A stretch of DNA of 64,000 nucleotides from Flavobacteriales bacterium (GTDB lineage Bacteria > Bacteroidota > Bacteroidia > Flavobacteriales_D > Sanyastnellaceae): positions 6,450 through 70,449 of the forward strand of contig JBDQOI010000012.1 in the NCBI GenBank assembly GCA_040261275.1, read 5' to 3'. Under the pieces are notes generated by a model. It did no database searches and was not told where the DNA came from. It saw nothing but the letters and a program-made list of their open reading frames with translations. The translations under genes and the position numbers were made by a program. Below are positions 10,129 through 45,804 of the stretch, piece after piece. The number at the start of each line of letters is the position of its first letter. Positions within the stretch are counted from its first letter, which is position 1.

Positions 10129-11937
10129 ATGAGATCCGCTGCTGTTCCTTGTCTGTTGCTCGTCGCCGTTTTCCTGTCAAATCCGGTCGTCCGAGCCCAA
10201 CACTTTGACTCTCCCCTCTCCCACGGGATTGACCCTCGAGAAGTCGAATACTACGAGGCCCATCCGTTCCAAACGGTAGCCACGCGTGGGGAAACCACGC
10301 CCCCGGAATTCGAGGGGCTCCGCACCATGGCCGAATGGGAGGAAATCGAAATCCTCTGCGTGGGCTGGGAAGGGTACAGCGCGATCCAAAAGCAGATCGT
10401 AGTCAACGCCGCCCAAGAGTGTGAGGTCATCGTACTGACCGAGGACCCGGCCTATGTCGAGGACTACATTACTTCCGCCAACAATGGAGGTGCCGCGGCG
10501 ACCCTGGACAATATCACGACGATCGAAACCCCGCTCAATACGGTGTGGATTCGGGATTACGGACCCAATACCGTTTACGGCACAGGGGTGGACGACCGCA
10601 TCATCGTCGATTGGCTCTACAACCGCCCGAGGCCGGATGACGATGTCTCGCCGCAGGTCATCGCGGACCACATGGGCATCACCCTGTACGAGACCACAGC
10701 GGAGCCCTACGACCTCATGAATACGGGCGGCAATTTCATGAGCGACGGGTTCGGTATGGGATTCGCTTCCAACCTCATCGTGGATGAGAATTCGGGGGGA
10801 GGCACCTGGTGGGGCACGCAGTTCCCGGACCAGAGCGTGGAAGAGATTGAAGGCATCCTTGCCGACTTCATGGGACTGCACACCTATGTGCGGATGGAAA
10901 ACCTGCCCTTTGATGGCATCCACCACATCGACATGCACATGAAGCTCCTCGATGAGGAGACGATTCTGATGGCGGAATATCCCGAAGGCATAGCGGATGG
11001 GCCCCAGATTGAAGCCAACCTCGAATACGTTCTCTCCAACCACAACAGCAAGTGGGGCACCCCCTTCGAGGTGTTGCGCATCCCATCGCCACCCGAGCCC
11101 GGCTGGGGGGGCGGCTTCCCGGATGAAGGGGGAGACTACATGACCTATACCAATTCGGTGTTCGTCAACAACACCATTCTCGTCCCCACCTATTATGAAG
11201 AGTACGATGCCATTGCATTGGGCATCTATGAAGAGGCCATGCCCGGCTACAATGTCGTGGGCATCGACTGCAATCAAATCATCTCCGCCAGCGGTGCCAT
11301 CCATTGCATCACCCACAGTGTGGGCGTCGAGGACCCGCTGCTCATCAGCCATCAGCCGCTCGATGACACGGAAGACACCGCCAATCCTTATCCGGTGGAG
11401 GCATTGGTTCAACACCGTTCCGGCATCGAATCCGCCCGCCTGTTCTGGCGTTTGGAAGGCCAGTCCGAGTACAATGAGGTGGCCATGACCGAGGGCATGG
11501 AGGACATGTGGTCCGCCGGCATCCCGGCGCAGCCCGAAAACACGGTGGTTCAGTACTACGTAGAGGGCACCTCCGTCAGCGGAAAGGTGCAGGACCGCCC
11601 CATGCCCGCGCCGGAGGGATACTGGCAGTTCCGGGTAGGGGAGATTGTGGTGAATGGTCTCGATGTGCTCCCTGCCTTCGCAGGATTCCAGCCCGCCTTT
11701 CCCAACCCCGCTTCTGCCATTACCTGCATTCCTGTAGCGTTGAGCCGAGCCGCCGAAGGCCGCATTGTCCTGCGCGATGCCGTGGGCCGCGAAGTCGCCA
11801 TTTTGTTCGAAGGGCAAGTTCCCGCAGGCATCAGCAAACACTTCGTGGATGCCGCTCGCCTGGTCGCCGGAGCCCATGTCATCACCCTCGAATTGGAGGG
11901 GCAAGGCGTTTGGTCCCAGCGCCTGATGGTACGGTAA
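10129..11937 (+). CDS. Secreted agmatine deiminase/Porphyromonas-type peptidylarginine deiminase family protein with a T9SS C-terminal sorting domain
   Basis: 602 aa; signal peptide MRSAAVPCLLLVAVFLSNPVVRAQ. Guanidino-modifying-enzyme motifs WIRDYGP, GGNFMSDG and the catalytic GAIHCITH (Cys codon 11305-11307). The last ~90 aa (FPNPASAITCIPVAL...GAHVITLELEG...RLMVR) look like a T9SS type-A CTD. Confidence 0.8.
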   Translation: MRSAAVPCLLLVAVFLSNPVVRAQHFDSPLSHGIDPREVEYYEAHPFQTVATRGETTPPEFEGLRTMAEWEEIEILCVGWEGYSAIQKQIVVNAAQECEVIVLTEDPAYVEDYITSANNGGAAATLDNITTIETPLNTVWIRDYGPNTVYGTGVDDRIIVDWLYNRPRPDDDVSPQVIADHMGITLYETTAEPYDLMNTGGNFMSDGFGMGFASNLIVDENSGGGTWWGTQFPDQSVEEIEGILADFMGLHTYVRMENLPFDGIHHIDMHMKLLDEETILMAEYPEGIADGPQIEANLEYVLSNHNSKWGTPFEVLRIPSPPEPGWGGGFPDEGGDYMTYTNSVFVNNTILVPTYYEEYDAIALGIYEEAMPGYNVVGIDCNQIISASGAIHCITHSVGVEDPLLISHQPLDDTEDTANPYPVEALVQHRSGIESARLFWRLEGQSEYNEVAMTEGMEDMWSAGIPAQPENTVVQYYVEGTSVSGKVQDRPMPAPEGYWQFRVGEIVVNGLDVLPAFAGFQPAFPNPASAITCIPVALSRAAEGRIVLRDAVGREVAILFEGQVPAGISKHFVDAARLVAGAHVITLELEGQGVWSQRLMVR

Positions 11938-31380: not shown

Positions 31381-33378
31381 TCAAGGACAGACCAAACCGA
31401 AGAAGGACAGGACGTCCAAAATGTCAGAGACCCCAACCATGCCATCAAAATCGAGGTCTTGGGGACAATTGTTACCCTCATCCCATTCGCAGGAGCCATC
31501 GTCAAAGAAGGCATTGGCGTCGTAATTGACTGCTTCAGAAGAGGTGCAACCCACCCAAGGACCCGGGCCGCAGCGCTCGTCATCTTCCGCAAATGGGCTG
31601 AATGAGGGGTCATCGGGATGGGTGCAGCCGGGGCATGATGACGCAGGCAATCCGAAACAGGAGCGCTGCTCGTCCAGTGGCTCGACTACGGGCCAAAGCA
31701 GGGACAGCGACCGATCGACAGAATCGACCTCGGTGCCCGTTGCATAGTGATAGGTCCAATCTCCATTACCCAGCGAGAGTGTCGCTTTCCAGGTTCCAAA
31801 TCCACCGGGAACCATGGCGTATGGTGCTCCCTCCATAAAGATGATCATGCTCGATGGGGCCGGTGACAGCGTCGAAGCATCCACCCTGAAATCGACGAAA
31901 TATTGACACGAGCCATCGTCCACATCCGAAAAGGCGCAGGGGTCGAAATTCAGCGCCGCTGGATCCGAGCATCCAATGGGCGTGCCGGGGCTGGGCAAAA
32001 CGCCCGCACAACCGCAGTTCCCTTGTATCTGATCGCCAATGGTGCAGGGATTGCCATCGTTGCAAGGGTCTCCAGTCGAAAAGCAGAAATCATTCAAAAC
32101 GGCGTCGGAATCGAAGTTGCAAGCATCAGAATTTGTGCAGCCCTGAATGAGTGGAATCGTTTCAGCAGGCACTTTCCGCGCCCGATAGGAAAAGTGATTT
32201 TCAGGGAAATGAATTTGACCCAAGAGATTTCCAGCTACATCGTACTCAGAGACCATCCCTCCTCCACTCAACTCCGAGGAAGCCGTACCCCACCCGATGA
32301 GGGTGCCTCCGGAATCGAGGCGCTGGATGCTTCCCTGGGACGCGGCATAATGCCCATCGGGGTGGGGCCACTCTTGGACCTGTACGAGTGAACCGGCCTC
32401 CTCGTCAAGGACGTACTCCACTCCCCTTGAAACCATGGGCATCGCTCCCGTTGCATTGTCAAATAGCAAGAGGTGGTTATTGGGCAGCAAATGCGCATCA
32501 TGGGGATGCCGAAACGCGTTCAGCGGATCGTCGAAAGCAAAATCCGACATCGGTCCACCCGCAACCCAAACCAATTCTCCGGTCAATCGATTGATGCGGA
32601 CAACAGCATCCATATTCCTGAGGCAGAGGAGAACATCTCCGTTTTCCAGCGTCTGGAAGGCGTTGTGATGATAAGCATCGAGGAGCGATGCATTCCAGTT
32701 GCAGTGGGTGCACCAAGTAGGGGGAATGTGATCAGAAGCCCGCCAGAACCACAGGATGTTTCCGAGGGCATCCTGTTCCTGAATCAAGCAATCAATCAAG
32801 GAGCGAGTTGAGTCTTGTGGGTCGGGTAAACTGTCCGCCAGCGTGACCGTAACGATTTCCTTTCCGAGCAACAAGCGGTGGCCATCCTCAAGCAACTCCA
32901 AGTCGTGATAGTCCGCTTCGGCTCCTAAAAATTCAATGGGCTCAAGAACTTGAAAGGAGCTATCCAGCTTTTCCCAAACACCGGTCAGGGTGGAAAACCA
33001 GGCCAGACTCCCATCGGGATGATGGTCGAAATTGAAACCTCGGAACGGGTTCAACTCATTGAGCAGAACTGTCCCGTCCTGCGCCACTACAATGGGATAG
33101 GTCTCGTTGGAACTGAACCGAGGGGATGCAATGATTTCGCCGGCTGTGAACTGAACGCCCGGCTCAAAAATGACTTCCATCGAAAGTCCCGAATTGACTT
33201 GAGACATCAATAAAGCCGGCATCACGGTGACCACGAGTACGGGTAACATCCCACGAAGAAATGCGCACAAAAAATACTTTACCCCCGCTCGAAACTGTTC
33301 TAAGGGTGCACCTTGCCGCAAACACTGGGCAATGGAAAGTAGGGGGGTTGGCAGCATTGGGTTTTTTGTGTAACTCAC
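31381..33378 (-). CDS. Arylsulfotransferase (ASST)-like beta-propeller protein with a cysteine-minimotif/dockerin-like tail
   Basis: 665 aa; N-terminal TM/signal. The central region (LENGDVLLCLRNMDAVVRINRLTGELVW, HPHDAHLL) resembles the ASST family. The C-terminal ~250 aa carry GCTNSDACNFDSDA-type motifs and end in CPQDLDFDGMVGVSDILDVLSFFGLVCP. Confidence 0.6.
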   Translation of the reverse strand: MSYTKNPMLPTPLLSIAQCLRQGAPLEQFRAGVKYFLCAFLRGMLPVLVVTVMPALLMSQVNSGLSMEVIFEPGVQFTAGEIIASPRFSSNETYPIVVAQDGTVLLNELNPFRGFNFDHHPDGSLAWFSTLTGVWEKLDSSFQVLEPIEFLGAEADYHDLELLEDGHRLLLGKEIVTVTLADSLPDPQDSTRSLIDCLIQEQDALGNILWFWRASDHIPPTWCTHCNWNASLLDAYHHNAFQTLENGDVLLCLRNMDAVVRINRLTGELVWVAGGPMSDFAFDDPLNAFRHPHDAHLLPNNHLLLFDNATGAMPMVSRGVEYVLDEEAGSLVQVQEWPHPDGHYAASQGSIQRLDSGGTLIGWGTASSELSGGGMVSEYDVAGNLLGQIHFPENHFSYRARKVPAETIPLIQGCTNSDACNFDSDAVLNDFCFSTGDPCNDGNPCTIGDQIQGNCGCAGVLPSPGTPIGCSDPAALNFDPCAFSDVDDGSCQYFVDFRVDASTLSPAPSSMIIFMEGAPYAMVPGGFGTWKATLSLGNGDWTYHYATGTEVDSVDRSLSLLWPVVEPLDEQRSCFGLPASSCPGCTHPDDPSFSPFAEDDERCGPGPWVGCTSSEAVNYDANAFFDDGSCEWDEGNNCPQDLDFDGMVGVSDILDVLSFFGLVCP
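31384..31467 (-). other. C-terminal cysteine-bracketed dockerin-like EF-hand repeat (single copy)
   Basis: CPQDLDFDGMVGVSDILDVLSFFGLVCP is the last 28 aa. DxDxDG Ca-loop plus a hydrophobic helix, flanked by Cys. Confidence 0.6.
31468..32142 (-). repeat. Degenerate GCTDxxACN[YF] minimotif region in the ASST-like protein
   Basis: GCTNSDACNFDSDAVLNDFC, GCSDPAALNFDPCAFSDVDDGSC, GCTHPDDPSFSPFAEDDERC and GCTSSEAVNYDANAFFDDGSC. Confidence 0.6.
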
Positions 33379-36045: not shown

Positions 36046-36074
36046 AAAAAGGCATCCGAAATGGATGCCTTTTC
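36046..36074. terminator. Rho-independent terminator (bidirectional look)
   Basis: AAAAA-GGCATCC-gaaat-GGATGCC-TTTTC, between waaA and the 3-prime end of tRNA-Gly. Confidence 0.75.
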
Positions 36075-36076
36075 TG

Positions 36077-36149
36077 AGCGAGAAACGAGACTCGAACTCG
36101 CGACCCCAACCTTGGCAAGGTTGTGCTCTACCAACTGAGCTATTCTCGC
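36077..36149 (-). tRNA. tRNA-Gly (anticodon GCC)
   Basis: The reverse complement GCGAGAATAGCTCAGTTGGTAGAGCACAACCTTGCCAAGGTTGGGGTCGCGAGTTCGAGTCTCGTTTCTCGCT folds as a cloverleaf: 7-bp acceptor stem, anticodon loop TTGCCAA, GTTCGAGTC T-arm. Confidence 0.92.
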
Positions 36150-36304
36150 TTGGGTCGGCGAATTTACACCAAAACTCGGTCCCGCCAATGCGAGCGAAAA
36201 CAAATCGACAAAACGTGCAACGATATAATAACACCCCTCGTTCTCATTTCACGTTGCATCTTGTAGGACCATTCCGTCAAACTGCCGCAATCCTCAACCA
36301 AACC

Positions 36305-39300
36305 ATGAGAACTGTATTTTTCTTGGCGTTCATCGCCGCTTTTACCCTCGACGGCTTCAGCCAAGTCAAATCAAACACCGCTCCGGCCGAGCGCAATTGT
36401 GCGGCCCACGAGATGCACGTCCAGATGATGGGACTGGATGCCGCCTATGCCAAACGGCACATGGACATGGAGCAACAAACCGCCGCGTTTGTGTCCGCAC
36501 GTCAAGAAGCCCGTGCGAACGGAGCACAGCAGCAACCGGTGGTCATCACCATACCCGTGGTATTCCATGTGATCTACGCCAACGAGACGCAGAACATTCC
36601 CGATTCGGAGCTCCTGGAGCAATTGCAAGTACTCAATGAAGATTTCCGACGCACCAACGCCGACCAGGACAACATCTGGCCGCAGGGAGCGGATACGGAA
36701 ATCGAGTTCTGCATGGCTACGCGGGACCCCAACGGAGCACCGAGCAGCGGCATCCTCCGCGTACCCACTACCGTGTCGAGCTTCGGTTCCAACGACGCCA
36801 TGAAGTTCACGGCCCAAGGAGGTTCGGATGCCTGGCCAGCGAGCGAATATTTGAATTACTGGGTGTGCAACCTCGGCGGTGGTCTCTTGGGATATGCTCA
36901 ATTTCCGGGAGGTCCCGCGGCAACGGACGGAGTGGTTTGCGGATACCCTTATGTCGGGTTGAACGGTCCCGGAGCCGGCGCCTACAACTTGGGCCGCACG
37001 GGAACGCACGAGGTCGGTCACTGGCTCAATCTCCGCCACATCTGGGGCGATGGCCCCTGTGGCTCGGACGACTTCGTGGCCGACACCCCTGAGTCGGACG
37101 GCGCCAACTACGGCTGTGCCCTCGGCCACATCAGCTGCTCCACGGAAGACATGGTCCAGAACTACATGGACTACTCCGATGACGGGTGCATGAACATCTT
37201 CACCCAAGGACAAGGCGATCGCATGCAAGCCGTCCTGGCTCCCGGAGGGGCACGCGCGAGCATTGCCACTTCCAACGGTTGCCTGCCTGCCGTCCCCGAC
37301 TTTGATCTCGACGCCGCCATCATTGCGGTCAATGAGCCCAGTGGCTTCTCATGCTCGACGGAAGTCACGCCTTCCATCACCCTCTTCAACTACGGAGGAA
37401 CAGTGCTGACTTCAGCCACCATTACCTACGACATCGACGGCGCCGGAGCCCAGACCTTTGCCTGGACAGGCTCCCTGGAGTTTGGCCAGAGTGAGGACAT
37501 CACTCTACCCGCCCAGACGCCCGGCGATGGCAGCCACGTCTTCAATGTGTCCGTTTCCGCTCCTAACGGAGGCGTTGACGAGAACAGTGCCAATGATTCC
37601 GGTAGCAGCGACTTTGCATTGGATTCCCAAGGCGTAGACGTCACCATGACCCTCACCTTGGACAATTACCCGGGTGAAACCACATGGGAGCTGGCGGATG
37701 CAGCTGGAACGGTGGTCTTTTCTGGTGGACCTTACGCCGGTTCAGGCGTGGTCGTGGAGACCGGTTGTGTGGCAGAAGGCTGCTACACCTTAACCGTTTA
37801 CGACAGCTTTGGCGACGGCATGTGCTGTGCCTACGGAACAGGAGGTTATGAATTCGGCATCGGTGGATTGGTGCTGGCCTCGGGAGGCGAATTCGGCTCC
37901 AGTGAATCCACAGACGTCTGTGTAGGCGATGTCGTACTCGGCTGCACCGACGCCACCGCTTGCAACTACAATCCAGACGCCATCGCGGACGACGGTACTT
38001 GTGATTTCAGCTGCCTCGGCTGCACCGACTCCACCTTCTGCAACTTCAACCCCGACGCTACTGTAGACGATGGAAGCTGCGCGAACGAGGACATCTGTGG
38101 TGTGTGTGCCGGAGACGGATCCAGCTGCTCGGGTTGCACCGACAGCACTGCCTGCAACTACGACGACGAAGCCACCTTTGACGATGGCACTTGCTATTTC
38201 GCTCCTCCTGGAGGCGTATGCGACTGCTTCACCGATCTCTCCATTACCGAGAGTCTTGCCGGTGGTGTAGCTGGCACGCCTGTCACCTTTGAAGGCAGCG
38301 GTGAGGTCACTGGTTTCGATATCACCCTCGACTACACGAGCAGTGCCGGCAGCTGGGCAGCAGATATGCTTGTGGTCATCACATCACCCAACGGAGATTG
38401 CATCGAGTTTGGAGGGTTCACAAGCACCGTCACTGCAGGATGCACAGATTTGGGAGGTTACACCCTTTGGCCCGCAGGTTGGGCAGTGGATGCCAGTGGC
38501 GTTTACACCGCTTCCATCGACTTGAGTGCTTCCGGATTGACCGGAGACGGGACTTGGAGTGTACAACTTTGGAATGGCTATGCCGCTGGTGGAACGGTGA
38601 CATATATCGCGGACATCACCGTTCAGGATGTCTGCATCGGCGGTGTGATCAATGGCTGCACCGACCCGACGGCATGCAACTATGATGCGGACGCCACGGC
38701 CGACGACGGCTCCTGTGCGGACTTTGACCTCTGCGGCATCTGCGCCGGAGACAACAGTACCTGCGGGGGCTGCACGGACAGCACAGCCTGCAACTTCGAT
38801 CCGGCCGTAATCATTGATGACGGCTCCTGCGCAGACTTCGACCTTTGCGGCGTGTGTGCTGGAGACAACAGCACCTGCGGTGGTTGCACGGACAGTACCG
38901 CCTGCAACTTCGATCCGGCCGCGATTGTGGATGACGGATCCTGTATTCTGGATGGCCTGCCCTTCTCTTTAAGCATCCTGCTGGACAATTTTCCCGGTGA
39001 AACGACTTGGAGCCTCACCGATAGCTTAGGTGCATCGATTGCCTCCGGCGGTCCATATGCCGGAGCGGGAACCACTGTTGTGGAGAACTTCTGCGCACCG
39101 GAAGGGTGCTACACCTTGACCATGTTCGACAGCTTCGGCGACGGCATTTGCTGCTCCTATGGAATCGGCAGCTACGAACTGACGGCGGACGGAGGTGTCG
39201 TCGCTTCCGGAGGTGAATACGGGGCTCAAGAGGCCACCTCCTTCTGTGTGGGCGGAGACTTCGGCTGCACGGATGCAACGGCCTGCAACTATGATCCGGA

Positions 39301-41155
39301 TGCCGTTTTGGACAATGGCGCATGCGACTTCAGCTGCTATGGCTGCACGGACCCCGAGAGCTGCAACTACGACGCGGATGCGACCATTGATGATGGCAGC
39401 TGTGTCGGCGCAGGTGTGGGTGTGGTGGTCTCCATCACGACGGACAGCTGGCCCGAAGAGATTACTTGGAACATCACGGATGGTACAGGTGCAATCGTGG
39501 CCTCCGGCGGACCCTATGCGAGTCCGGCGACCACCTACAACGAAACCGTGTGCTTGGCCGAGGGGTGCTTCACCTTCACCATTGCGGACAGCTTTGGGGA
39601 TGGCATCTTCAGCCCGGGAGGTTACAGCCTGACCATTGACGGTGTGGTCATTGCGTCCGGAGGTGCATATGGCACTGGGGAATCTGTCGATTTCTGCACG
39701 GACAACCTCAATTTCGGCTGTACCGACCCACTGGCCTGCAACTACGATCCGGATGCCGGTATTGACAACGGCACGTGCGACTTCAGCTGCAATGGATGCA
39801 CCCTGCCGGCCGCTTGCAACTACAACCCGGATGCCACGGTGGACGATGGCTCTTGCCTTTTCGATGACGACTGCGGCGTCTGCGGTGGAGACAACAGCAC
39901 ATGTGGTGGCTGCACCGACCCCGCTGCCTGCAACTTCGACCCGGATGCCACCATCGACGATGGAAGCTGCATCATCGGTGGCATCGACTTCACCATGACG
40001 GTGGTGTTGGACAATTACCCCGCCGAATTCTCATGGGTCCTGGTCGACGCCAGCGGAGCTACGGTGGCTTCGGAAGGATATGGTGGACTGACCGGAACCG
40101 TGACGACAACCTACTGTCTGCCGGACGGTTGCTACGACCTGACGGTCAATGACAGTTTCGGAGATGGTATCTGCTGCTCCTTCGGTAATGGAAGCTACAC
40201 CCTGACCGTAGCGGGTTCCGTTGTGGCGACGGGAGGTGATTTCGGCAGCACGGAAACCACCAGTTTCTGCACGGGCGACCTGCCCGGTTGTACCGATCCG
40301 GATGCTTGCAACTACAATTCTGCGGCCACGGTAGACGACGGGTCTTGTACCTACCCGCCGGCGGACAACTTGGATTGTGACGGCAACTGCCTCAACGATG
40401 CGGATGGCGATGGCATTTGCGACGAGGACGAAGTGGCAGAGAGCAGCTTTGTCCAACTCGGATATGATGTGCTGGCACAGAACACCGTGGACGGAGCGAC
40501 GACCTATCGCGTTTGGGCCGAATTCTCCGACCCTACGGAGCAGCTGGTCGCCGTGTACGGATTTGACTCCGTACCCTTGACCATCAATACCACAACGGCA
40601 TTCTACCAGAACCCGCTCGGTGGAGCCTTGGCCGTTGACTTCAATCCAGCGTTGTTGCCCGTTGACTCCCTGCTCGCTTTCGACAGCTGGCTGACCGTCG
40701 GTGGACAGGACAACTCGGCCGATGTCAATTCCATCGGACTCGACTTCGGGCCGTTTGAGGGTTCAGGTGGCCCGGTCATCGCGGACAATGTCAATGGCGG
40801 TTCGGTCTTCATTTACCCTGACCTCGAGCCCGCTGCCTTCCCGGATGCGCAAGGCCATGTGCTGATTGCCCAGTTGACCACCGATGGAGAAGTCAGCCTG
40901 ACGGTCAATCTTCAATCCCGCACTGGCGATGGACAAAACCCGCAAATCCTTCAGCAAAGCCTCACCTTCCAAGAGGTCTACGAGTGCTTTGGCGACTTCA
41001 ACAACGACGGCCTGATCGGCATTGGTGACCTGCTGATGTTGCTCGGAGACTTCGGCTGTCCTTCCGATTGCAGCTATGACATGAATGGTGACGGTGGTGT
41101 GACCACCTCGGACATGCTCGTCATGCTCGCTGTATTCGGAACGGACTGCCCATGA
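36305..41155 (+). CDS. Giant secreted M43 (cytophagalysin/pappalysin-type) zinc metalloprotease with repeat modules and a dockerin-like C-terminus
   Basis: 1616 aa from MRTVFFLAFIAAFTLDGFSQ (signal peptide). Zinc site HEVGHWLNLRH at 37007-37039, then ADTP and NYMDYS motifs. Then four ~92-aa DSFGDG modules, 12 GCTDxxACN[YF] minimotifs, a P-domain-like module, a TSP3-like DCDGNCLNDADGDGICDEDE (40373-40432) and two dockerin-like repeats. The track ORF from 36065 reads through tRNA-Gly and was trimmed. Confidence 0.88.
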   Translation: MRTVFFLAFIAAFTLDGFSQVKSNTAPAERNCAAHEMHVQMMGLDAAYAKRHMDMEQQTAAFVSARQEARANGAQQQPVVITIPVVFHVIYANETQNIPDSELLEQLQVLNEDFRRTNADQDNIWPQGADTEIEFCMATRDPNGAPSSGILRVPTTVSSFGSNDAMKFTAQGGSDAWPASEYLNYWVCNLGGGLLGYAQFPGGPAATDGVVCGYPYVGLNGPGAGAYNLGRTGTHEVGHWLNLRHIWGDGPCGSDDFVADTPESDGANYGCALGHISCSTEDMVQNYMDYSDDGCMNIFTQGQGDRMQAVLAPGGARASIATSNGCLPAVPDFDLDAAIIAVNEPSGFSCSTEVTPSITLFNYGGTVLTSATITYDIDGAGAQTFAWTGSLEFGQSEDITLPAQTPGDGSHVFNVSVSAPNGGVDENSANDSGSSDFALDSQGVDVTMTLTLDNYPGETTWELADAAGTVVFSGGPYAGSGVVVETGCVAEGCYTLTVYDSFGDGMCCAYGTGGYEFGIGGLVLASGGEFGSSESTDVCVGDVVLGCTDATACNYNPDAIADDGTCDFSCLGCTDSTFCNFNPDATVDDGSCANEDICGVCAGDGSSCSGCTDSTACNYDDEATFDDGTCYFAPPGGVCDCFTDLSITESLAGGVAGTPVTFEGSGEVTGFDITLDYTSSAGSWAADMLVVITSPNGDCIEFGGFTSTVTAGCTDLGGYTLWPAGWAVDASGVYTASIDLSASGLTGDGTWSVQLWNGYAAGGTVTYIADITVQDVCIGGVINGCTDPTACNYDADATADDGSCADFDLCGICAGDNSTCGGCTDSTACNFDPAVIIDDGSCADFDLCGVCAGDNSTCGGCTDSTACNFDPAAIVDDGSCILDGLPFSLSILLDNFPGETTWSLTDSLGASIASGGPYAGAGTTVVENFCAPEGCYTLTMFDSFGDGICCSYGIGSYELTADGGVVASGGEYGAQEATSFCVGGDFGCTDATACNYDPDAVLDNGACDFSCYGCTDPESCNYDADATIDDGSCVGAGVGVVVSITTDSWPEEITWNITDGTGAIVASGGPYASPATTYNETVCLAEGCFTFTIADSFGDGIFSPGGYSLTIDGVVIASGGAYGTGESVDFCTDNLNFGCTDPLACNYDPDAGIDNGTCDFSCNGCTLPAACNYNPDATVDDGSCLFDDDCGVCGGDNSTCGGCTDPAACNFDPDATIDDGSCIIGGIDFTMTVVLDNYPAEFSWVLVDASGATVASEGYGGLTGTVTTTYCLPDGCYDLTVNDSFGDGICCSFGNGSYTLTVAGSVVATGGDFGSTETTSFCTGDLPGCTDPDACNYNSAATVDDGSCTYPPADNLDCDGNCLNDADGDGICDEDEVAESSFVQLGYDVLAQNTVDGATTYRVWAEFSDPTEQLVAVYGFDSVPLTINTTTAFYQNPLGGALAVDFNPALLPVDSLLAFDSWLTVGGQDNSADVNSIGLDFGPFEGSGGPVIADNVNGGSVFIYPDLEPAAFPDAQGHVLIAQLTTDGEVSLTVNLQSRTGDGQNPQILQQSLTFQEVYECFGDFNNDGLIGIGDLLMLLGDFGCPSDCSYDMNGDGGVTTSDMLVMLAVFGTDCP
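37652..37927 (+). repeat. DSFGDG-CC module, copy 1
   Basis: LTLDNYPGETTWELADAAGTVVFSGGPYAGSG..GCYTLTVYDSFGDGMCCAYGTGGYEF...ASGGEFGSSESTDVCVG. Confidence 0.8.
37940..38194 (+). repeat. GCTDxxACN[YF] minimotif array 1 (3 copies + CGVCAGD linker)
   Basis: GCTDATACNYNPDAIADDGTC, GCTDSTFCNFNPDATVDDGSC, NEDICGVCAGDGSSCSGC, GCTDSTACNYDDEATFDDGTC. Confidence 0.8.
38219..38634 (+). other. P-domain-like ~135-aa module (copy in the M43 protease)
   Basis: CDCFTDLSI...FDITLDYTSSAGSWAADMLVVITSPNGDC...LGGYTLWPAGW..SGVYTASIDLSASGLTGDGTWSVQLWNGY...DVC. Paralogous to 42697-43116. Confidence 0.6.
38654..38944 (+). repeat. GCTDxxACN[YF] minimotif array 2 (3 copies + 2 linkers)
   Basis: GCTDPTACNYDADATADDGSC, then twice ADFDLCG[IV]CAGDNSTCGGCTDSTACNFDPA..DDGSC. 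Confidence 0.8.
38702..38929 (+). repeat. Near-perfect 2 x 114-nt tandem duplication inside the M43 gene
   Basis: 38702-38815 and 38816-38929 both encode DDGSCADFDLCG(I/V)CAGDNSTCGGCTDSTACNFDPA(V/A)I(I/V). The nucleotide differences are mostly synonymous. Confidence 0.85.
38975..39253 (+). repeat. DSFGDG-CC module, copy 2
   Basis: ILLDNFPGETTWSLTDSLGASIASGGPYAGAG..GCYTLTMFDSFGDGICCSYGIGSYEL...ASGGEYGAQEATSFCVG. Confidence 0.8.
39263..39403 (+). repeat. GCTDxxACN[YF] minimotif array 3 (2 copies)
   Basis: GCTDATACNYDPDAVLDNGAC and GCTDPESCNYDADATIDDGSC. Confidence 0.8.
39428..39697 (+). repeat. DSFGDG module, copy 3 (lacks the CC pair)
   Basis: VSITTDSWPEEITWNITDGTGAIVASGGPYASP..GCFTFTIADSFGDGIFSPGGYSL...ASGGAYGTGESVDFC. 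Confidence 0.75.
39716..39970 (+). repeat. GCTDxxACN[YF] minimotif array 4 (3 copies + linker)
   Basis: GCTDPLACNYDPDAGIDNGTC, GCTLPAACNYNPDATVDDGSC, DDDCGVCGGDNSTCGGC, GCTDPAACNFDPDATIDDGSC. Confidence 0.8.
40001..40276 (+). repeat. DSFGDG-CC module, copy 4
   Basis: VVLDNYPAEFSWVLVDASGATVASEGYGGLTG..GCYDLTVNDSFGDGICCSFGNGSYTL...ATGGDFGSTETTSFCTG. Confidence 0.8.
40286..40348 (+). repeat. GCTDxxACN[YF] minimotif, single copy 12
   Basis: GCTDPDACNYNSAATVDDGSC. Confidence 0.8.
40985..41152 (+). other. C-terminal double dockerin-like EF-hand repeat, cysteine-bracketed (M43 protease)
   Basis: CFGDFNNDGLIGIGDLLMLLGDFGC-PSD-CSYDMNGDGGVTTSDMLVMLAVFGTDCP-stop. Confidence 0.65.
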
Positions 41156-43332
41156 TGCGTGCATCCATCCTATTCTTCTTTGCCCTCCTGATCGGAACTT
41201 CGGTTTCCGGTCAGGTGGCACAGGGGGGACATCCTTGGAAGTGGGGGCAATCCGGATTTGACTCGGAATACCCGCTTTTGACCACCGCGGAACTCGACCT
41301 CGAAGCCCTCGCTGCAGAAGATGCGGTCACCGACCAGTACAAAGAGGCGCCTTGGCGCTTTGGTGTAGAGCGGGAGGTCGACCTGAGGCTCACTGATTCG
41401 GGATCCTGGACCCAGGAAAAGGACCGTTGGATTTGGCGCCTTGGAATCCACTGTCCGGGCGCTACAGGTATCGCCATCAGGCTGAGCACTTTCGATGTCC
41501 CCAGCGGGGCCGCGCTGTATGTCTGGAATGCGGACCGCACCCATTTCCTCGGGGGATTCACCGAGGCCAATGAAAAGGAATGGGGAAGCCTGCCCTTGGG
41601 GCTGCTCGATGCTGAAGAAGTGGTCTTGGAATACCAGGAGCCCCTCGATGTCCATGGTGAGGGTGACCTCCGCATCGACCAGGTGGTCCATGGATATCGC
41701 AGCCTGCTGCGTCACCCCGAGAATGCAGCAGAGGAAGCGAGCATGGGGCCCTTTGGAAGCTCAGGGGCTTGCAACATCAATGTGAATTGTCCTTCGGGGA
41801 ACGACTGGCAGGTCGCCAAGCGTTCCGTCGCCCTCATCACCAATGGCGGATACGCGGTTTGCAGCGGGGCTTTGGTCAACAACACGGCAGAAGATGGCAC
41901 CCCGTACTTCCTGACGGCCAACCACTGCCTCGGCAATCCCAACACCTGGGTGTATTACTTCAACCACGAGAGCAGCACCTGTTCGGGTTCCACGGGTCCG
42001 ACCAACCAGAGCGTTTCGGGCGGCACCTTGTTGGTCAACAGCGGCAGCAGCGATGTGGCCCTCATCCAATTGAGCACAACACCCCCTGCCAGCTACAACG
42101 TAGAGTACGCGGGTTGGGATGCGAGTGGATCCCCCCCCTCTTCGGCTGTCGGAATTCACCACCCCAGCGGCGACGTGAAGAAGATCTGCTTCGAAAACAA
42201 TTCGCCCTACTTCTCCACCGCGGGCAGTGCCGCGGTATGGTGGATCGACCAATGGGAATCTGGTGTCACCGAACCCGGGTCCTCCGGCTCGCCCCTCTTC
42301 GACCAGAACCAGCGCATCATTGGTCAATTGTACGGTGGCGCAGCGGCGTGCAGCGGAAGTTCCAACAATGGCGCTTACGATTACTACGGCCGCATGAACG
42401 TGAGCTGGGGCGTTGGGGTATCCGGTTACCTCGATCCGTTGAATACCAACCAGCTCACCATTGACAGCTATCCTACGAACTCGAACTCTACGGCGGGCTG
42501 CACCCTTCCCTCGGCCTGCAATTACGACCCGGAGGCGCTGGAAGATGATGGCTCCTGCCAGATTGACGATGCATGCGGCGTCTGTGGTGGCGACGGAACA
42601 AGTTGTACGGGATGCACCGACAACACGGCCTGCAACTTCGACCCAGAGGCCACGATCGACGACGAAGGATGCCTCTACCCGCCGGCAGGCGAGCCTTGCG
42701 ACTGCGACGCCGAAGGGGCCCTCGACGCGACATTGTCGGCCAATGCCGCTTCGTCCATCTTTTCCTTCGATGCGGCAGGCGAACCCACCTCCTTGGACAT
42801 CACACTAAACTGGACCAACACGGGCGGAGGGGCCAATTGGCCTGCCGATCTCGCGATGGCCATCACCTCGCCGGAAGGAGCCTGTGCCTCGCTGGGTGGC
42901 TACAATTCTTCGCCCGCTGGGTGCTCCAGCTTGGGCAACTACACGCTTTGGCCCGCCTCATGGCAGGTCTCCACCAGCGGGACCTACACGGCCACCGTTG
43001 ACCTCTCCAGCAGTGGCTTGTCGGGCAACGGAACCTGGTCCGTCTACCTTTTCAACGGCTACGGCAGCTCTTCCGGCGCTCAATTCAACGCCTCATGGGT
43101 CGTCTCCGGCTTGTGCAACGGCTCGCCCGATGGCGGAGGTGGCGGTGGCGGCCCGAACGATTGCCCTCCCGATCTGGACGGGGACGGCACTGTGACCGTC
43201 TCGGATGCCTTGATTTTGCTCGGCGATTTCGGTTGCCTGTCCAATTGCACCGCGGATCTGAATGGCGACGACTTCGTCAACACATCGGACATGCTCATCT
43301 TCCTCGGCGCCTTTGGCGAACCTTGCGAATGA
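41152..43332 (+). CDS. Secreted S1-family trypsin-like serine protease (lysyl-endopeptidase-like) with the same C-terminal module stack
   Basis: 726 aa; signal peptide MMRASILFFFALLIGTSVSGQ and an N-terminal pro-region. Catalytic triad context: TANHC (His codon 41923-41925), DVALIQL, GSSGSPLF (Ser codon 42283-42285). Then 2 minimotifs, a P-domain-like module, a Gly7 linker and two dockerin-like repeats. Its ATG overlaps the M43 stop. Confidence 0.85.
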   Translation: MMRASILFFFALLIGTSVSGQVAQGGHPWKWGQSGFDSEYPLLTTAELDLEALAAEDAVTDQYKEAPWRFGVEREVDLRLTDSGSWTQEKDRWIWRLGIHCPGATGIAIRLSTFDVPSGAALYVWNADRTHFLGGFTEANEKEWGSLPLGLLDAEEVVLEYQEPLDVHGEGDLRIDQVVHGYRSLLRHPENAAEEASMGPFGSSGACNINVNCPSGNDWQVAKRSVALITNGGYAVCSGALVNNTAEDGTPYFLTANHCLGNPNTWVYYFNHESSTCSGSTGPTNQSVSGGTLLVNSGSSDVALIQLSTTPPASYNVEYAGWDASGSPPSSAVGIHHPSGDVKKICFENNSPYFSTAGSAAVWWIDQWESGVTEPGSSGSPLFDQNQRIIGQLYGGAAACSGSSNNGAYDYYGRMNVSWGVGVSGYLDPLNTNQLTIDSYPTNSNSTAGCTLPSACNYDPEALEDDGSCQIDDACGVCGGDGTSCTGCTDNTACNFDPEATIDDEGCLYPPAGEPCDCDAEGALDATLSANAASSIFSFDAAGEPTSLDITLNWTNTGGGANWPADLAMAITSPEGACASLGGYNSSPAGCSSLGNYTLWPASWQVSTSGTYTATVDLSSSGLSGNGTWSVYLFNGYGSSSGAQFNASWVVSGLCNGSPDGGGGGGGPNDCPPDLDGDGTVTVSDALILLGDFGCLSNCTADLNGDDFVNTSDMLIFLGAFGEPCE
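42496..42672 (+). repeat. GCTDxxACN[YF] minimotif array in the S1 protease (2 copies + linker)
   Basis: GCTLPSACNYDPEALEDDGSC, QIDDACGVCGGDGTSCTGC, GCTDNTACNFDPEATIDDEGC. Confidence 0.8.
42697..43116 (+). other. P-domain-like ~135-aa module (copy in the S1 protease)
   Basis: CDCDAEGALD...LDITLNWTNTGGGANWPADLAMAITSPEGAC...LGNYTLWPASW..SGTYTATVDLSSSGLSGNGTWSVYLFNGY...GLC. Paralogous to 38219-38634. Confidence 0.6.
43162..43329 (+). other. C-terminal double dockerin-like EF-hand repeat, cysteine-bracketed (S1 protease)
   Basis: CPPDLDGDGTVTVSDALILLGDFGC-LSN-CTADLNGDDFVNTSDMLIFLGAFGEPCE-stop. Confidence 0.65.
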
Positions 43333-43419: not shown

Positions 43420-43445
43420 CCGTCAGGCGGTTGGTGGGTTAGTCT
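43420..43445. repeat. 26-nt direct repeat, copy 1 (spans the stop codon of the gene at 43439-44095)
   Basis: CCGTCAGGCGGTTGGTGGGTTAGTCT, identical to 44151-44176. Confidence 0.9.
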
Positions 43446-44095
43446 TCCCAGCGCCAGAAGGCTTGGGAATAAGCCGTTACAGCACTACTTCCTGCTCGCG
43501 ATGAAGGATTGCTGCACAATGGATACCAACCATCTACAACTTTCGAATCACAGCAAGTTGCGAATGCATCCTGAATAGTACTATGGCAATAGCTATACTC
43601 CACCTTGGGCCGCTCTTGGGTGGCGCAAAAACAACCCAACACAATGTTTCTGTTATAACTGCTGTAGGCGATCTCAGTGCCTTGAGATGGTGAATCGAAC
43701 ACGCTGTGGGAAGTGGAACTGCCTAGACCAAAGTTCTCGTTGAAGTCTGGAAGCATCCTCCAGACCAATTTATTAGGCGGGAAGTCCTCGTAAACGACTC
43801 CCACATCGGCGTCAGTTAAAACTCTCCACGATCCTGGCAATGATGAGCATTGCTCAATGCAGTTCCAAAGATTGTGGTTTCCTACGTCAAGCACCATGTG
43901 TGTGCTGTCATCATTGACATATATGCCGTCAGGAGTAAAGCTCTGGCCATAGAACGTGAGCAATTCAATAACATCAGCAGCACCAATAAAGCCATCGGGC
44001 TGCGCATCTGGATTGTATGGGAGTTGGAAGCCGTCGACCTGCGCGGTGACGTTGAACGCGGCGAGGATCACCAGGCATGCAAGTAGGTTCTTCAT
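43439..44095 (-). CDS. Small secreted Cys-rich protein with an N-terminal dockerin-like loop
   Basis: 218 aa from MKNLLACLVILAAFNVTAQ (signal peptide), then YNPDAQPDGFIGAADVIELLTFYG (43946-44017). Cys-rich C-terminal half; lower GC than the flanks. No family recognised. Confidence 0.6.
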   Translation of the reverse strand: MKNLLACLVILAAFNVTAQVDGFQLPYNPDAQPDGFIGAADVIELLTFYGQSFTPDGIYVNDDSTHMVLDVGNHNLWNCIEQCSSLPGSWRVLTDADVGVVYEDFPPNKLVWRMLPDFNENFGLGSSTSHSVFDSPSQGTEIAYSSYNRNIVLGCFCATQERPKVEYSYCHSTIQDAFATCCDSKVVDGWYPLCSNPSSRAGSSAVTAYSQAFWRWED

Positions 44096-44150
44096 GGTGC
44101 TACAAGTTCGGAAGAGCACTGCAGAATGCCATGCCGCTGGCGAAGTGGGG

Positions 44151-44176
44151 CCGTCAGGCGGTTGGTGGGTTAGTCT
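44151..44176. repeat. 26-nt direct repeat, copy 2 (spans the stop codon of the pentapeptide-repeat gene)
   Basis: CCGTCAGGCGGTTGGTGGGTTAGTCT, identical to 43420-43445. Confidence 0.9.
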
Positions 44177-44919
44177 GGCACTATGCGGTATCGGTTCGGC
44201 TCTGAACAGTCTGGATCAGGTTCGCAGATGTAGCCTGATGGGAGTTGCGATGGGCAGCCGATCTGGAGACAGGTCATAGTGGCACCAATGAGTTTGGCAT
44301 CAGCGAAGTTGGCACCAGGGAGGTTGGCAAATTTGGGGTTGACATTTTCGAGGTTGAAACCAGTGAGGTCCGCATCAAAGAGCTCGGCACCAGAGAGTTG
44401 GGAACCAGAGAGGTCGGCATGAGAGAGGTTGGCACCAGAGAGGTCGGCTTCAGAGAGTTCGGCACGAGTGAGGCTGGCACCAGAGAGGTTGGCACCAGTG
44501 AGGTTGGCATCAATGAGGAAGGCATCACTGAGTAAGGCAGATCTGAGGTTGGCACCAGAGAGGTTGGCAAGAGTGAGGTTGGCACCATTGAGGTCGGCAC
44601 CATTGAGGTCGGCACCAGAAAGGTCGGCATCCCAGAGGTCGGCACCAGAGAGGCCGGCACCAGAGAGGTTGGCACCAGAGAGGTTGGCATGAGAGAGTTG
44701 GGCATCAGAGAGGTTGGCACGAGTGAGGTTGGCACCAGTGAGGTTGGTTCCGCGCAGATCTAAATCTGAGAGGTCTACATGACCTAAGTTTTCATTTGGC
44801 TTTAGCCCATAATCACGCCGGTTCTGAACTATCTGTTTCTGTTCTTCTTTTGAAATCATCCAAGCAATATCGTCAAAGTGGTGCCGGTGTCTTAAATCTT
44901 GCGACGTCGCTTGGACCAT
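44170..44919 (-). CDS. Pentapeptide-repeat protein
   Basis: About 35 consecutive A(D/N)LxG-type pentapeptides ([37 protein letters not shown]...), with a Cys-containing C-terminal tail. No signal peptide. ATG at 44919 preferred; alternatives are a TTG at 44991 and an ATG at 44859. Confidence 0.85.
44284..44780. repeat. 15-nt periodic DNA repeat underlying the pentapeptide repeats
   Basis: Units close to GAGGTTGGCACCAGA recur head-to-tail about 30 times. The region stays open in several frames on both strands (track ORFs 44245-44535, 44274-44735, 44429-44692). Confidence 0.85.
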
Positions 44920-45166
44920 CGCCGATGTCAGGCGTGTGTGGTTAGACCTGTTTTGAATAAATCCCCACGTTACGATCCATTCAACTGCCAAGCACTGCCA
45001 TACTTCTGCATATACGGCAGTGGAAGTTTGCAGTGTTCGCGGGCCTTGTAGGCCATCGACTGCCGTACTGCCACACTTTTGCAGGTAGCTGGAGAGAGAG
45101 CAGCAGAGGACGGGTGTGAATAACTATGTGCCATGCAGGAAGGCACACAGCAAACCCCAAACAACA

Positions 45167-45193: not shown

Positions 45194-45197
45194 AGTG

Positions 45198-45283
45198 TAC
45201 CCGGAGCGGGACTTGAACCCGCACGACCCGTTTGGGTCAACAGAGTTTAAGTCTGTCGTGTCTACCAATTCCACCATCCGGGC
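45198..45283 (-). tRNA. tRNA-Leu (anticodon TAA), class II with a long variable arm
   Basis: The reverse complement GCCCGGATGGTGGAATTGGTAGACACGACAGACTTAAACTCTGTTGACCCAAACGGGTCGTGCGGGTTCAAGTCCCGCTCCGGGTA has anticodon loop CTTAAAC, a long extra arm and a GGTTCAAGTCC T-arm. Confidence 0.9.
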
Positions 45284-45324: not shown

Positions 45325-45804
45325 CTATTCCAAGTGATCGGAGACCCAGCACGTTCCCGACCAAACCAGCTCTGCAAAAATGCCGTTGGTCTCGTACTGC
45401 CTCGCGAGCGTGAGCCAGTTGCCCACGGAATCCTGCAGATAGACTTGCTGGTCATTCATATCGGGCTGTTTGGACACCGCCAAACGGAAGGACTGACCCG
45501 GATATTCGCCATCAGGCACCGTTACGTAGAGGTAAGGAAAGGTGAAATCTTCGGCGATGTAGAGGTCATATCCCAACGGCAGAATGCCGACGGTATCCGG
45601 ATCAAAATGAAGGACGGATGGACCCGTGAAAGGTGGATTGTAAGGCAGTCCATACACCGCCAAAACTGCGATGACATCTCCTGCACCGATGTTGCCGTCC
45701 CCGTTTGCATCGGGATTGAAGGCTTGCGCCTGGACTGCAGAGGCTAAAACCAAGGCCAATGTGACCCCAGCAGCGCGTAGACGAAGATGAGCTGTGCCCT
45801 TCAT
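45325..45804 (-). CDS. Small secreted protein with an N-terminal dockerin-like loop (paralogous tag to 43439-44095)
   Basis: 159 aa; signal peptide ending ASAVQAQA, then FNPDANGDGNIGAGDVIAVLAVYG (45649-45720). No family recognised for the rest. Confidence 0.6.
   Translation of the reverse strand: MKGTAHLRLRAAGVTLALVLASAVQAQAFNPDANGDGNIGAGDVIAVLAVYGLPYNPPFTGPSVLHFDPDTVGILPLGYDLYIAEDFTFPYLYVTVPDGEYPGQSFRLAVSKQPDMNDQQVYLQDSVGNWLTLARQYETNGIFAELVWSGTCWVSDHLE

Follow-up and report, generated by a model that had tools for sequence, protein, structure and literature searches.

Cysteine-framed C-terminal tails of secreted proteins in a Flavobacteriales genome belong to the GC-type dockerin family

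The dockerins of cellulosomes are mostly located at the C-termini of secreted enzymes (PMC12270676), and a non-covalent clasp joins their N- and C-termini (PMC3821032). Slutzki et al. described this "intramolecular clasp", which is formed by residues −3 to −1 before the first loop and the C-terminus, in all of the intact dockerin structures examined, including PDB entry 2Y3N; when it was disrupted, the melting temperature fell from 61 to 41 °C, and cohesin was bound approximately 10-fold more weakly (PMC3821032). A Cys-containing relative is catalogued in NCBIfam as NF041540 ("dockerin_GC", GC-type dockerin domain-anchored protein; 67 model positions and a curated cut-off of 29 bits). Here, we analyzed a stretch of 64,000 nucleotides (the window; G+C content of 58.4%) from contig JBDQOI010000012.1 of an uncultured marine Flavobacteriales bacterium (GCA_040261275.1). 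Three secreted proteins encoded in it, an M43 metalloprotease, a trypsin-like S1 protease, and an arylsulfotransferase-like (ASST-like) protein, end in dockerin-like repeats framed by Cys residues. These tails are new members of the catalogued NF041540 family, for which we found no published experimental function, and the freshest element among them is a conserved single-repeat variant. We lean, by a modest degree, to the view that the tails are GC-type dockerin modules that provide Ca2+-dependent, disulfide-locked docking or retention for secreted hydrolases and are not secretion signals.

The tail of the S1 protease matched NF041540 with 36.5 bits when it was searched alone and with 30.4 bits in the whole protein, both above the cut-off. 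The M43 tail reached 19.0 bits (E = 0.0013), which is under the cut-off, and the whole M43 protein gave no match. The homology of the M43 tail is nonetheless clear from its 52% identity to the S1 tail and its score of 93.9 bits against our own profile of related tails. The single-repeat tail of the ASST-like protein gave no match to NF041540 at E ≤ 1 and no match in Pfam or NCBIfam, and it covers only half of our own tail profile with 20.7 bits. All of the 31 diverse tails collected in an alignment (A2) matched NF041540 end to end at E ≤ 0.01. The curated model and the window tails share a C-terminal, Cys-containing double F-hand but differ in length (67 model positions versus 55–56 residues), and the model misses the M43-type tails and all of the single-repeat tails. 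A second subtype of Cys-framed terminal dockerin, ending in WGPCP or HFGPCP (the metagenome protein P0023 and similar), was observed together with "choice-of-anchor" domains (choice_anch_Q, 30.1 bits); it has no match to NF041540 at E ≤ 0.01.

The first-pass annotation of this DNA had described the tails as a disulfide-stapled dockerin variant that may double as a terminal sorting or attachment signal, and this interpretation is partly supported by our analysis. The 56-residue M43 and S1 tails that it quoted are exact translations of the plus-strand intervals listed in Table 1. The dockerin assignment was borne out by the Dockerin_1 model (PF00404, gathering score of 22.9 bits), which scored 27.0 and 26.2 bits on the isolated M43 and S1 tails, and by the resemblance of a predicted structure to solved dockerins; in the full-length proteins, the Dockerin_1 scores were 15.6 and 14.1 bits, which are sub-threshold. 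Both repeats of the M43 and S1 tails follow the pattern D-x-[DN]-x-D-...-D, with Asp or Asn at loop positions 1, 3, 5, and 12 as putative Ca2+ ligands, while the ASST-like tail has one F-hand segment only. The models for the sorting domains of the type IX secretion system (T9SS; TIGR04183 for type A, and type B) were not among the matches of the M43, S1, and ASST-like proteins at E ≤ 1. The term "GC-type dockerin" occurred in no paper that we found, and a literature search on dockerins in connection with marine Bacteroidetes, T9SS, Crocinitomicaceae, and related taxa returned nothing relevant. The first-pass annotation had named a match to an existing, functionally defined anchor family as a finding that would speak against its proposal, and this applies in part. 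The family does exist under a name, and the S1 tail passes its cut-off; however, it is not functionally defined, because no paper naming or testing it was found. The novelty that was claimed for the tails is reduced by their membership in this family.

To name the conserved residues, the four Cys of a two-repeat tail are numbered C1 to C4 from the N-terminus. A search with the 56-residue tail alone as the query in a word index gave only 5 matches, and homologues were instead gathered by a profile search and an alignment query. The tail profile, searched against 1.84 billion proteins, matched 18,201 cluster representatives at E ≤ 1e-3, of which 1,106 remained at E ≤ 1e-10; ordinary dockerins are part of this set. 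Within the best 150 matches, all four Cys are present in 55 of the 82 domains that lie no more than 3 residues from the C-terminus, compared with 7 of the 127 internal domains. A locus scan, with one genome per species and an alignment of tails (A1) as the query, yielded 200 confirmed matches, and the best 79 loci were examined. Nearly all of these 79 loci belong to uncultured marine Flavobacteriales or Crocinitomicaceae metagenome-assembled genomes (MAGs). A tblastn search of the tail against plasmids gave no match, and the S1 protein, looked up by its exact sequence, had no record in public assemblies.

The extreme C-terminal placement noticed in the three window proteins is a general property of the tail. 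The open reading frame (ORF) ends 0–1 residue past the last Cys in 77 of the 79 species-level loci. Six-frame ORFs from 825 kb of DNA (81 loci and the window) included 128 that bear the tail, only 4 of which carry it in a non-terminal position (124/128 terminal). In 108 unique tails from the related MAG loci and the window, the last Cys is followed by no residue in 36, by one in 67, and by two or three in 5. The bracketing Cys, on which the earlier description depended, are also kept in these homologues: C1 and C4 are conserved in 100% of the 108 tails and C2 and C3 in 99%, and the spacing C-x23-C-x3-C-x25-C (24/4/26) is found in 94 of them. Because C2 and C3 were part of the DNA patterns used to collect the homologues, and all four Cys were part of the profiles, C1, C4, and the terminal position are the more independent observations. 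Asp residues at positions 4, 15, 32, and 43 are conserved in 100% of the tails. The hydrophobic core, the Ca2+ ligands, and the Cys residues make up the conserved positions, while the helix surface positions are variable. The regular expression proposed in the first-pass annotation matched 4 times in the six-frame translation of the window and not once in any of 200 composition-preserving shuffles. A fifth repeat, the second one of the S1 tail, is clearly homologous and was missed by the strict expression because it has DD in place of DG. A chance or low-complexity artefact was ruled out by the absence of matches in the 200 shuffles and by the deep conservation.

An AlphaFold2 model of the S1 tail, calculated from a 105-sequence alignment, has a predicted local distance difference test (pLDDT) value of 94.9. 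It contains two helices (residues 13–22 and 41–50), and a β-bridge joins residue 10 in loop 1 to residue 54, next to C4. In the model, the loops lack the entering helix of an EF-hand helix-loop-helix; the EF-hand models PF00036 and PF13405 scored 19.3 and 19.2 bits, under their cut-offs of 25.4 and 25. In a Foldseek search with the S1 tail model, the top PDB matches were all dockerins. The best match, chain B of 2Y3N (TM-score of 0.87, root mean square deviation of 1.0 Å, and 38% identity), is the dockerin of a family-48 glycoside hydrolase from B. cellulosolvens and is also the top PDB match by sequence (E = 1.7e-9). For the S1 tail, the two-helix dockerin fold is a high-confidence prediction.

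The window tails and the 2Y3N dockerin have in common the duplicated Ca2+ loop and helix, with Phe-Gly (FG) after each helix. However, the linker of 2Y3N is free of Cys and 5 residues longer than that in the window tails. Unlike the clasp of cellulosomal dockerins, the clasp of the window tails would be covalent, as would the linker, by virtue of the four Cys, and the chain terminates at the clasp residue. The first-pass annotation had stated that dockerins rarely form the last residues of a protein, which does not hold for cellulosomal enzymes, whose dockerins are mainly C-terminal (PMC12270676). The unusual point is that the chain halts 0–1 residue past the last Cys, and not the C-terminal dockerin as such. 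The hosts also differ from those of the cellulosomal dockerins: the GC-type tails are found in aerobic marine Gram-negative Flavobacteriales, their cargo consists mostly of proteases, and no cohesin is known.

The modeled fold and the sequence variants favour disulfides between C1 and C4 and between C2 and C3 over one clamp per repeat. The antiparallel helices of a dockerin bring the residue that precedes loop 1 close to the C-terminus and place the end of helix 1 beside loop 2. In the S1 tail model, the C-terminus packs against loop 1, as is evident from the bridge that links residues 10 and 54. The number of linker Cys per domain is two in 107 domains, none in 78, and one in 18, and the terminal units comprise 155 with all four Cys, 11 with C1 and C4 only, and 2 with C2 and C3 only. 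Four metagenome proteins with terminal dockerins (P0015, P0029, P0031, and P0010) lack C1 and have a Cys at position 7 of loop 1 instead. This position is the bridge partner of the C-terminal segment in the model, and the Cys of these variants looks like an alternative covalent clasp. The C1–C4 disulfide would tie the first residue of the module to the last, as a covalent version of the intramolecular clasp of cellulosomal dockerins, and this would explain why the chain stops at C4. The C2–C3 disulfide would staple the shortened linker between the repeats.

The first-pass annotation had instead paired C1 with C2 and C3 with C4, so that each repeat would be its own stapled loop-helix unit. The periodicity of the sequence, with a Cys at −3 before each loop and another 1–3 residues past each FG, suggests such an arrangement, as does the ASST-like single repeat, which holds exactly one Cys pair of this kind, invariant in its orthologues. 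Three variants that carry C3 and C4 only (P0042, P0062, and P0089) also point to it. However, the pre-loop and post-helix residues of one repeat are placed by the dockerin fold at opposite ends of a helix of 10–14 residues, too distant for a disulfide, and the model puts the C-terminus against loop 1. Moreover, C2 and C3 come or go jointly while C1 and C4 exist without them, and the Cys at position 7 of loop 1 substitutes for C1 and not for C3. We therefore regard a clamp within each repeat as quite improbable. It is still harder to credit that the four Cys form no disulfides and bind a metal at a Zn, Cu, or Fe site. The C-x3-C element and the four invariant Cys recall metal sites, and the Cys-rich linker motifs adjacent to the tails match Pfam PF11617, a "putative metal-binding motif". 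A single tetrahedral site would nevertheless be precluded in the model because the C1/C4 and C2/C3 pairs lie at opposite helix ends; the two pairs also occur independently of each other, and Sec export would deliver the module into an oxidising compartment.

The third tail quoted in the first-pass annotation, that of the ASST-like protein, is real, but it is encoded on the minus strand, and the plus-strand translation of the same interval is unrelated. The ASST-like protein has 43 close homologues (51–100% identity). Its full-length orthologues (41–72% identity) have exactly one repeat in every case, and both of the Cys are invariant in a 42-sequence alignment, so that the bracketing pair is kept here as well; judged from these sequences, the single repeat is not a relic. 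Close orthologues end in the Cys-framed repeat, whereas the distant ASST homologues P0308, P0310–P0312, and P0323 end in a T9SS sorting domain (PF18962). A metagenome scan with the C-terminal half of the ASST-like protein gave 49 pattern matches, none of which was confirmed.

A monomer model of the single-repeat tail (pLDDT of 80.7 and predicted TM-score of 0.40) contains only the loop and one long helix, and it cannot settle whether the tail pairs in trans. The two Cys flank the loop and the 14-residue helix (residues 67–80), and from this geometry it is unlikely that they meet within one chain. When two ASST-like tails are joined head to tail, the sequence at the junction reads C-P-N-N-C, which is the C-x3-C linker of the tandem form. 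The single-repeat tail may therefore complete its fold in trans, most likely as a homodimer with two reciprocal disulfides from the post-helix Cys of one chain to the pre-loop Cys of the other. Such pairing is attractive because the ASST of E. coli is a homodimer (PMC13426309) and because R. flavefaciens has functional single-repeat dockerins (PMC12270676). The "naturally truncated" group-2 dockerins of R. flavefaciens provide a precedent for the function of a dockerin with one Ca2+ repeat; they bind a known cohesin, ScaE, and two units may share one cohesin (PMC12270676). The ASST-like tail differs from them in its conserved Cys pair, suggesting covalent pairing in trans.

The tail is carried by diverse proteins in the related loci, namely two S8 proteases, an M12B reprolysin-like protein, an M36 protease with PA and MAM domains, and PETase-like, CotH, FG-GAP/VCPO, and LVIVD proteins. 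The N-termini of these carriers resemble signal peptides, and their catalytic domains are mutually unrelated. T9SS components and cargo are found in the same genomes: PorZ (615.5 bits) adjoins a tail-bearing gene in locus L057, TIGR04183 proteins are present in L021 and L060, CHU_C occurs with PorP_SprF in L083, and Por_Secre_tail occurs in L084. The tail does not replace an absent T9SS, because the system and its usual cargo are both present in the same MAGs. The metagenome proteins P0008 (77.9 bits) and P0118 (40.8 bits) have NF041540 modules ahead of a T9SS type A sorting domain (TIGR04183). The order of domains in P0017 is the same, with a dockerin score of 24.2 bits, below the cut-off, and P0008 consists essentially of four dockerin stretches and the sorting domain. 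The T9SS sorting domains of P0008, P0118, and the L021 and L060 proteins scored 34–44 bits. In L066 (6272–7510), L076 (2169–3389), and L081 (5080–7110), the module is followed by a FISUMP domain or an esterase/polyhydroxybutyrate-depolymerase-like domain. Such internal positions are easier to reconcile with binding than with export as the role of the module. Non-terminal GC-type dockerins are rare, and the surface-anchored multi-dockerin proteins are scaffold candidates.

In the mechanism that we propose, Sec export would bring the module into an oxidising compartment, where it would bind two Ca2+ ions and form its two disulfides. The locked module would then act as a portable unit for docking or retention, holding proteases and other hydrolases on a cohesin-like or other receptor, either on the cell surface or as part of an enzyme complex, and it would not itself be a secretion signal. 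Several observations weigh against this proposal. Neither a cohesin nor another receptor was detected among ten unknown or secreted ORFs scanned in the window, or among those neighbouring genes with Pfam annotation at three other loci on long contigs. No T9SS sorting domain or lipobox is present in the carriers, and therefore their route across the outer membrane to the surface is unaccounted for; by analogy with E. coli ASST, they could be periplasmic (PMC13426309). The very strict terminal position is equally expected of a sorting signal, the variants with C3 and C4 only fall outside the proposed pairing, and the presence of Cys in the search patterns and profiles inflates the apparent conservation of C2 and C3.

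The lack of a cohesin-like partner in these scans is also what would be seen if the tail were a stabilising, Ca2+-binding, or self-association module without a dedicated receptor, which would confer rigidity in the Ca2+ of seawater, protease resistance, or oligomerisation via pairing of dockerins and half-dockerins. The variable helix surfaces around a conserved core, set of Ca2+ ligands, and Cys residues are consistent with this possibility, as are proteins that are mostly tandem modules, such as P0008; moreover, the fold of the single-repeat version can be completed only by pairing. However, a mere stabiliser is not expected on many unrelated cargo families at one fixed position, and all of the dockerins characterised so far bind a partner (PMC3821032, PMC12270676); we consider a receptor-less module possible but rather doubtful. 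A function primarily as a C-terminal sorting or export signal, perhaps one that is removed, would make the tail a third class of T9SS signal or a substrate of an unknown sortase-like enzyme. Besides the strictness of its position, the tail resembles the T9SS type A sorting domain (TIGR04183/PF18962) in its extreme C-terminal location, and the two are found on cargo of the same types within one phylum and coexist in the same genomes. It takes the place of that domain on homologous Bacteroidota cargo (ASST homologues, M36, S8, and others), T9SS genes are near by (PorZ in L057 and PorP_SprF/CHU_C in L083), and no other route across the outer membrane is evident for the carriers. In contrast, the tail has no sequence similarity to TIGR04183 or any other sorting-domain model, and its predicted fold is helical and Ca2+-binding, whereas T9SS sorting domains are β-sandwiches. 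The module and a genuine T9SS sorting domain can share one protein (P0008, P0118, and P0017), and catalytic domains may come after the module (L066, L076, and L081). A sorting signal is thus an unlikely primary role, and the docking or retention module remains the reading that we prefer.

The genes of the three proteins and the other features of the window are listed in Table 1. The three N-termini are signal-peptide-like, and each coding sequence has a TGA stop one residue past the last Cys. The mechanical ORF of the M43 protease opens at 36065; however, its first 80 codons (36065–36304) read through a tRNA-Gly gene on the opposite strand, and therefore the start was placed at 36305, which is probably the true one. 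The N-terminus from this position (MRTVFFLAF...) resembles a signal peptide. The M43 stop codon and the ATG of the S1 gene overlap in the sequence ATGA (41152–41155), which suggests a translationally coupled operon, and the two genes probably form an operon on this basis. The pair, with both of its tails, is syntenic in loci L004–L020. A Cys-rich linker motif, CTDxxACNYDxxAxxDDGSC, was counted at least 10 times in the M43 protein, at least once in the S1 protein, and at least twice in the ASST-like protein; the counts are lower bounds from a strict regular expression that misses some variants. Related carriers match PF11617. The M43 protein further contains four copies of a module of approximately 100 residues marked by DNYPGETTW, and it has 91 Cys in total.

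Table 1. Features of the 64,000-nucleotide window (coordinates are positions in the window)
Feature	Coordinates	Strand	Remarks
M43 metalloprotease gene	36305..41155	+	Secreted, multidomain, 1616 residues; Peptidase_M43, 61.7 bits
tRNA-Gly	36076-36149	-	Overlaps the 5' part of the mechanical M43 ORF
M43 tail, two-repeat Cys-containing dockerin	40985..41152	+	C-x23-C-x3-C-x25-C-P, then stop
M43 tail, Cys codons	40985, 41057, 41069, 41147	+	
Trypsin-like S1 protease gene	41152..43332	+	Secreted, 726 residues; Trypsin_2, 36.3 bits
S1 tail, two-repeat GC-type dockerin	43162..43329	+	Single E after the last Cys
S1 tail, Cys codons	43162, 43234, 43246, 43324	+	
ASST-like gene (arylsulfotransferase beta-propeller)	31381..33378	-	Secreted, 665-residue ORF; Arylsulfotran_2, 55.7 bits; Arylsulfotrans, 54.8 bits
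ASST-like tail, single Cys-framed dockerin repeat ("half-dockerin")	31384..31467	-	CPQDLDFDGMVGVSDILDVLSFFGLVCP, then stop
ASST-like tail, Cys codons	31465, 31387	-	
Secreted 226-residue protein, N-terminal half-dockerin	43439-44119	-	NPDAQPDGFIGAADVIELLTFYG
Pentapeptide-repeat protein	44170-44991	-	NF052603 (Alr5209 family), 131 bits
tRNA-Leu	45197-45283	-	
Secreted 159-residue protein, Cys-less dockerin-like repeat	45325-45804	-	AFNPDANGDGNIGAGDVIAVLAVYGLPY
Porphyromonas-type peptidyl-arginine deiminase homologue	10129-11937	+	PAD_porph, 120.9 bits

Two small genes near the protease pair also encode half-dockerins. The 159-residue protein, whose gene is convergent with the M43-S1 pair and just downstream of it, begins, in its predicted mature form, with a single dockerin-like repeat that lacks Cys; in at least 17 related MAG loci, it is encoded at this position with identities of 69–82%. 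No match to it was found in Pfam or NCBIfam, and a PDB profile search gave nothing significant; possible roles are those of a partner, an inhibitor, or a chaperone of the proteases that bear dockerin tails. For the 226-residue protein, which has a Cys-rich C-terminal part after its half-dockerin, neither a family match nor an orthologue in the 81 loci was found. The gene of the pentapeptide-repeat protein lies between these two. Elsewhere in the window, a T9SS sorting domain was considered at the C-terminus of the peptidyl-arginine deiminase homologue on the basis of 26 bits with a home-made profile; it was not confirmed by NCBIfam and was rejected.

A bolder interpretation is that the tails mark a second exoenzyme localisation system in abundant uncultured marine Flavobacteriales, independent of the T9SS, in which a covalently cyclised dockerin would sit in an undiscovered surface receptor or would itself be a C-terminal export or attachment signal of a new class, with the half-dockerin assembling in trans by reciprocal intermolecular disulfides. 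We hold this combination to be speculative and, at present, not probable. Under it, the half-dockerin could pair either with another copy of itself or with the Cys-less half-dockerin at the N-terminus of the small protein adjacent to the M43-S1 pair. If true, the trans assembly of the half-dockerin would be a mode of dockerin assembly that has not been described so far.

In this study, a likely disulfide topology, the scale of the family and its focus in marine Flavobacteriales, its coexistence with the T9SS, and the M43-type and single-repeat tails were added to the catalogued family. A Ca2+-dependent, disulfide-cyclised dockerin of 56 residues, as predicted here, could serve as a compact and robust affinity or assembly tag. 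In the breakdown of algal and particulate organic matter, marine Flavobacteriales have a major part, and the location of their enzymes, whether cell-bound, in a complex, or free, decides who gains from the hydrolysis products. Within a large uncultured clade, the tail recurs at the C-termini of secreted hydrolases of many kinds. If it belongs to an anchoring system parallel to the T9SS, it would change the view of surface display in pelagic Bacteroidota.

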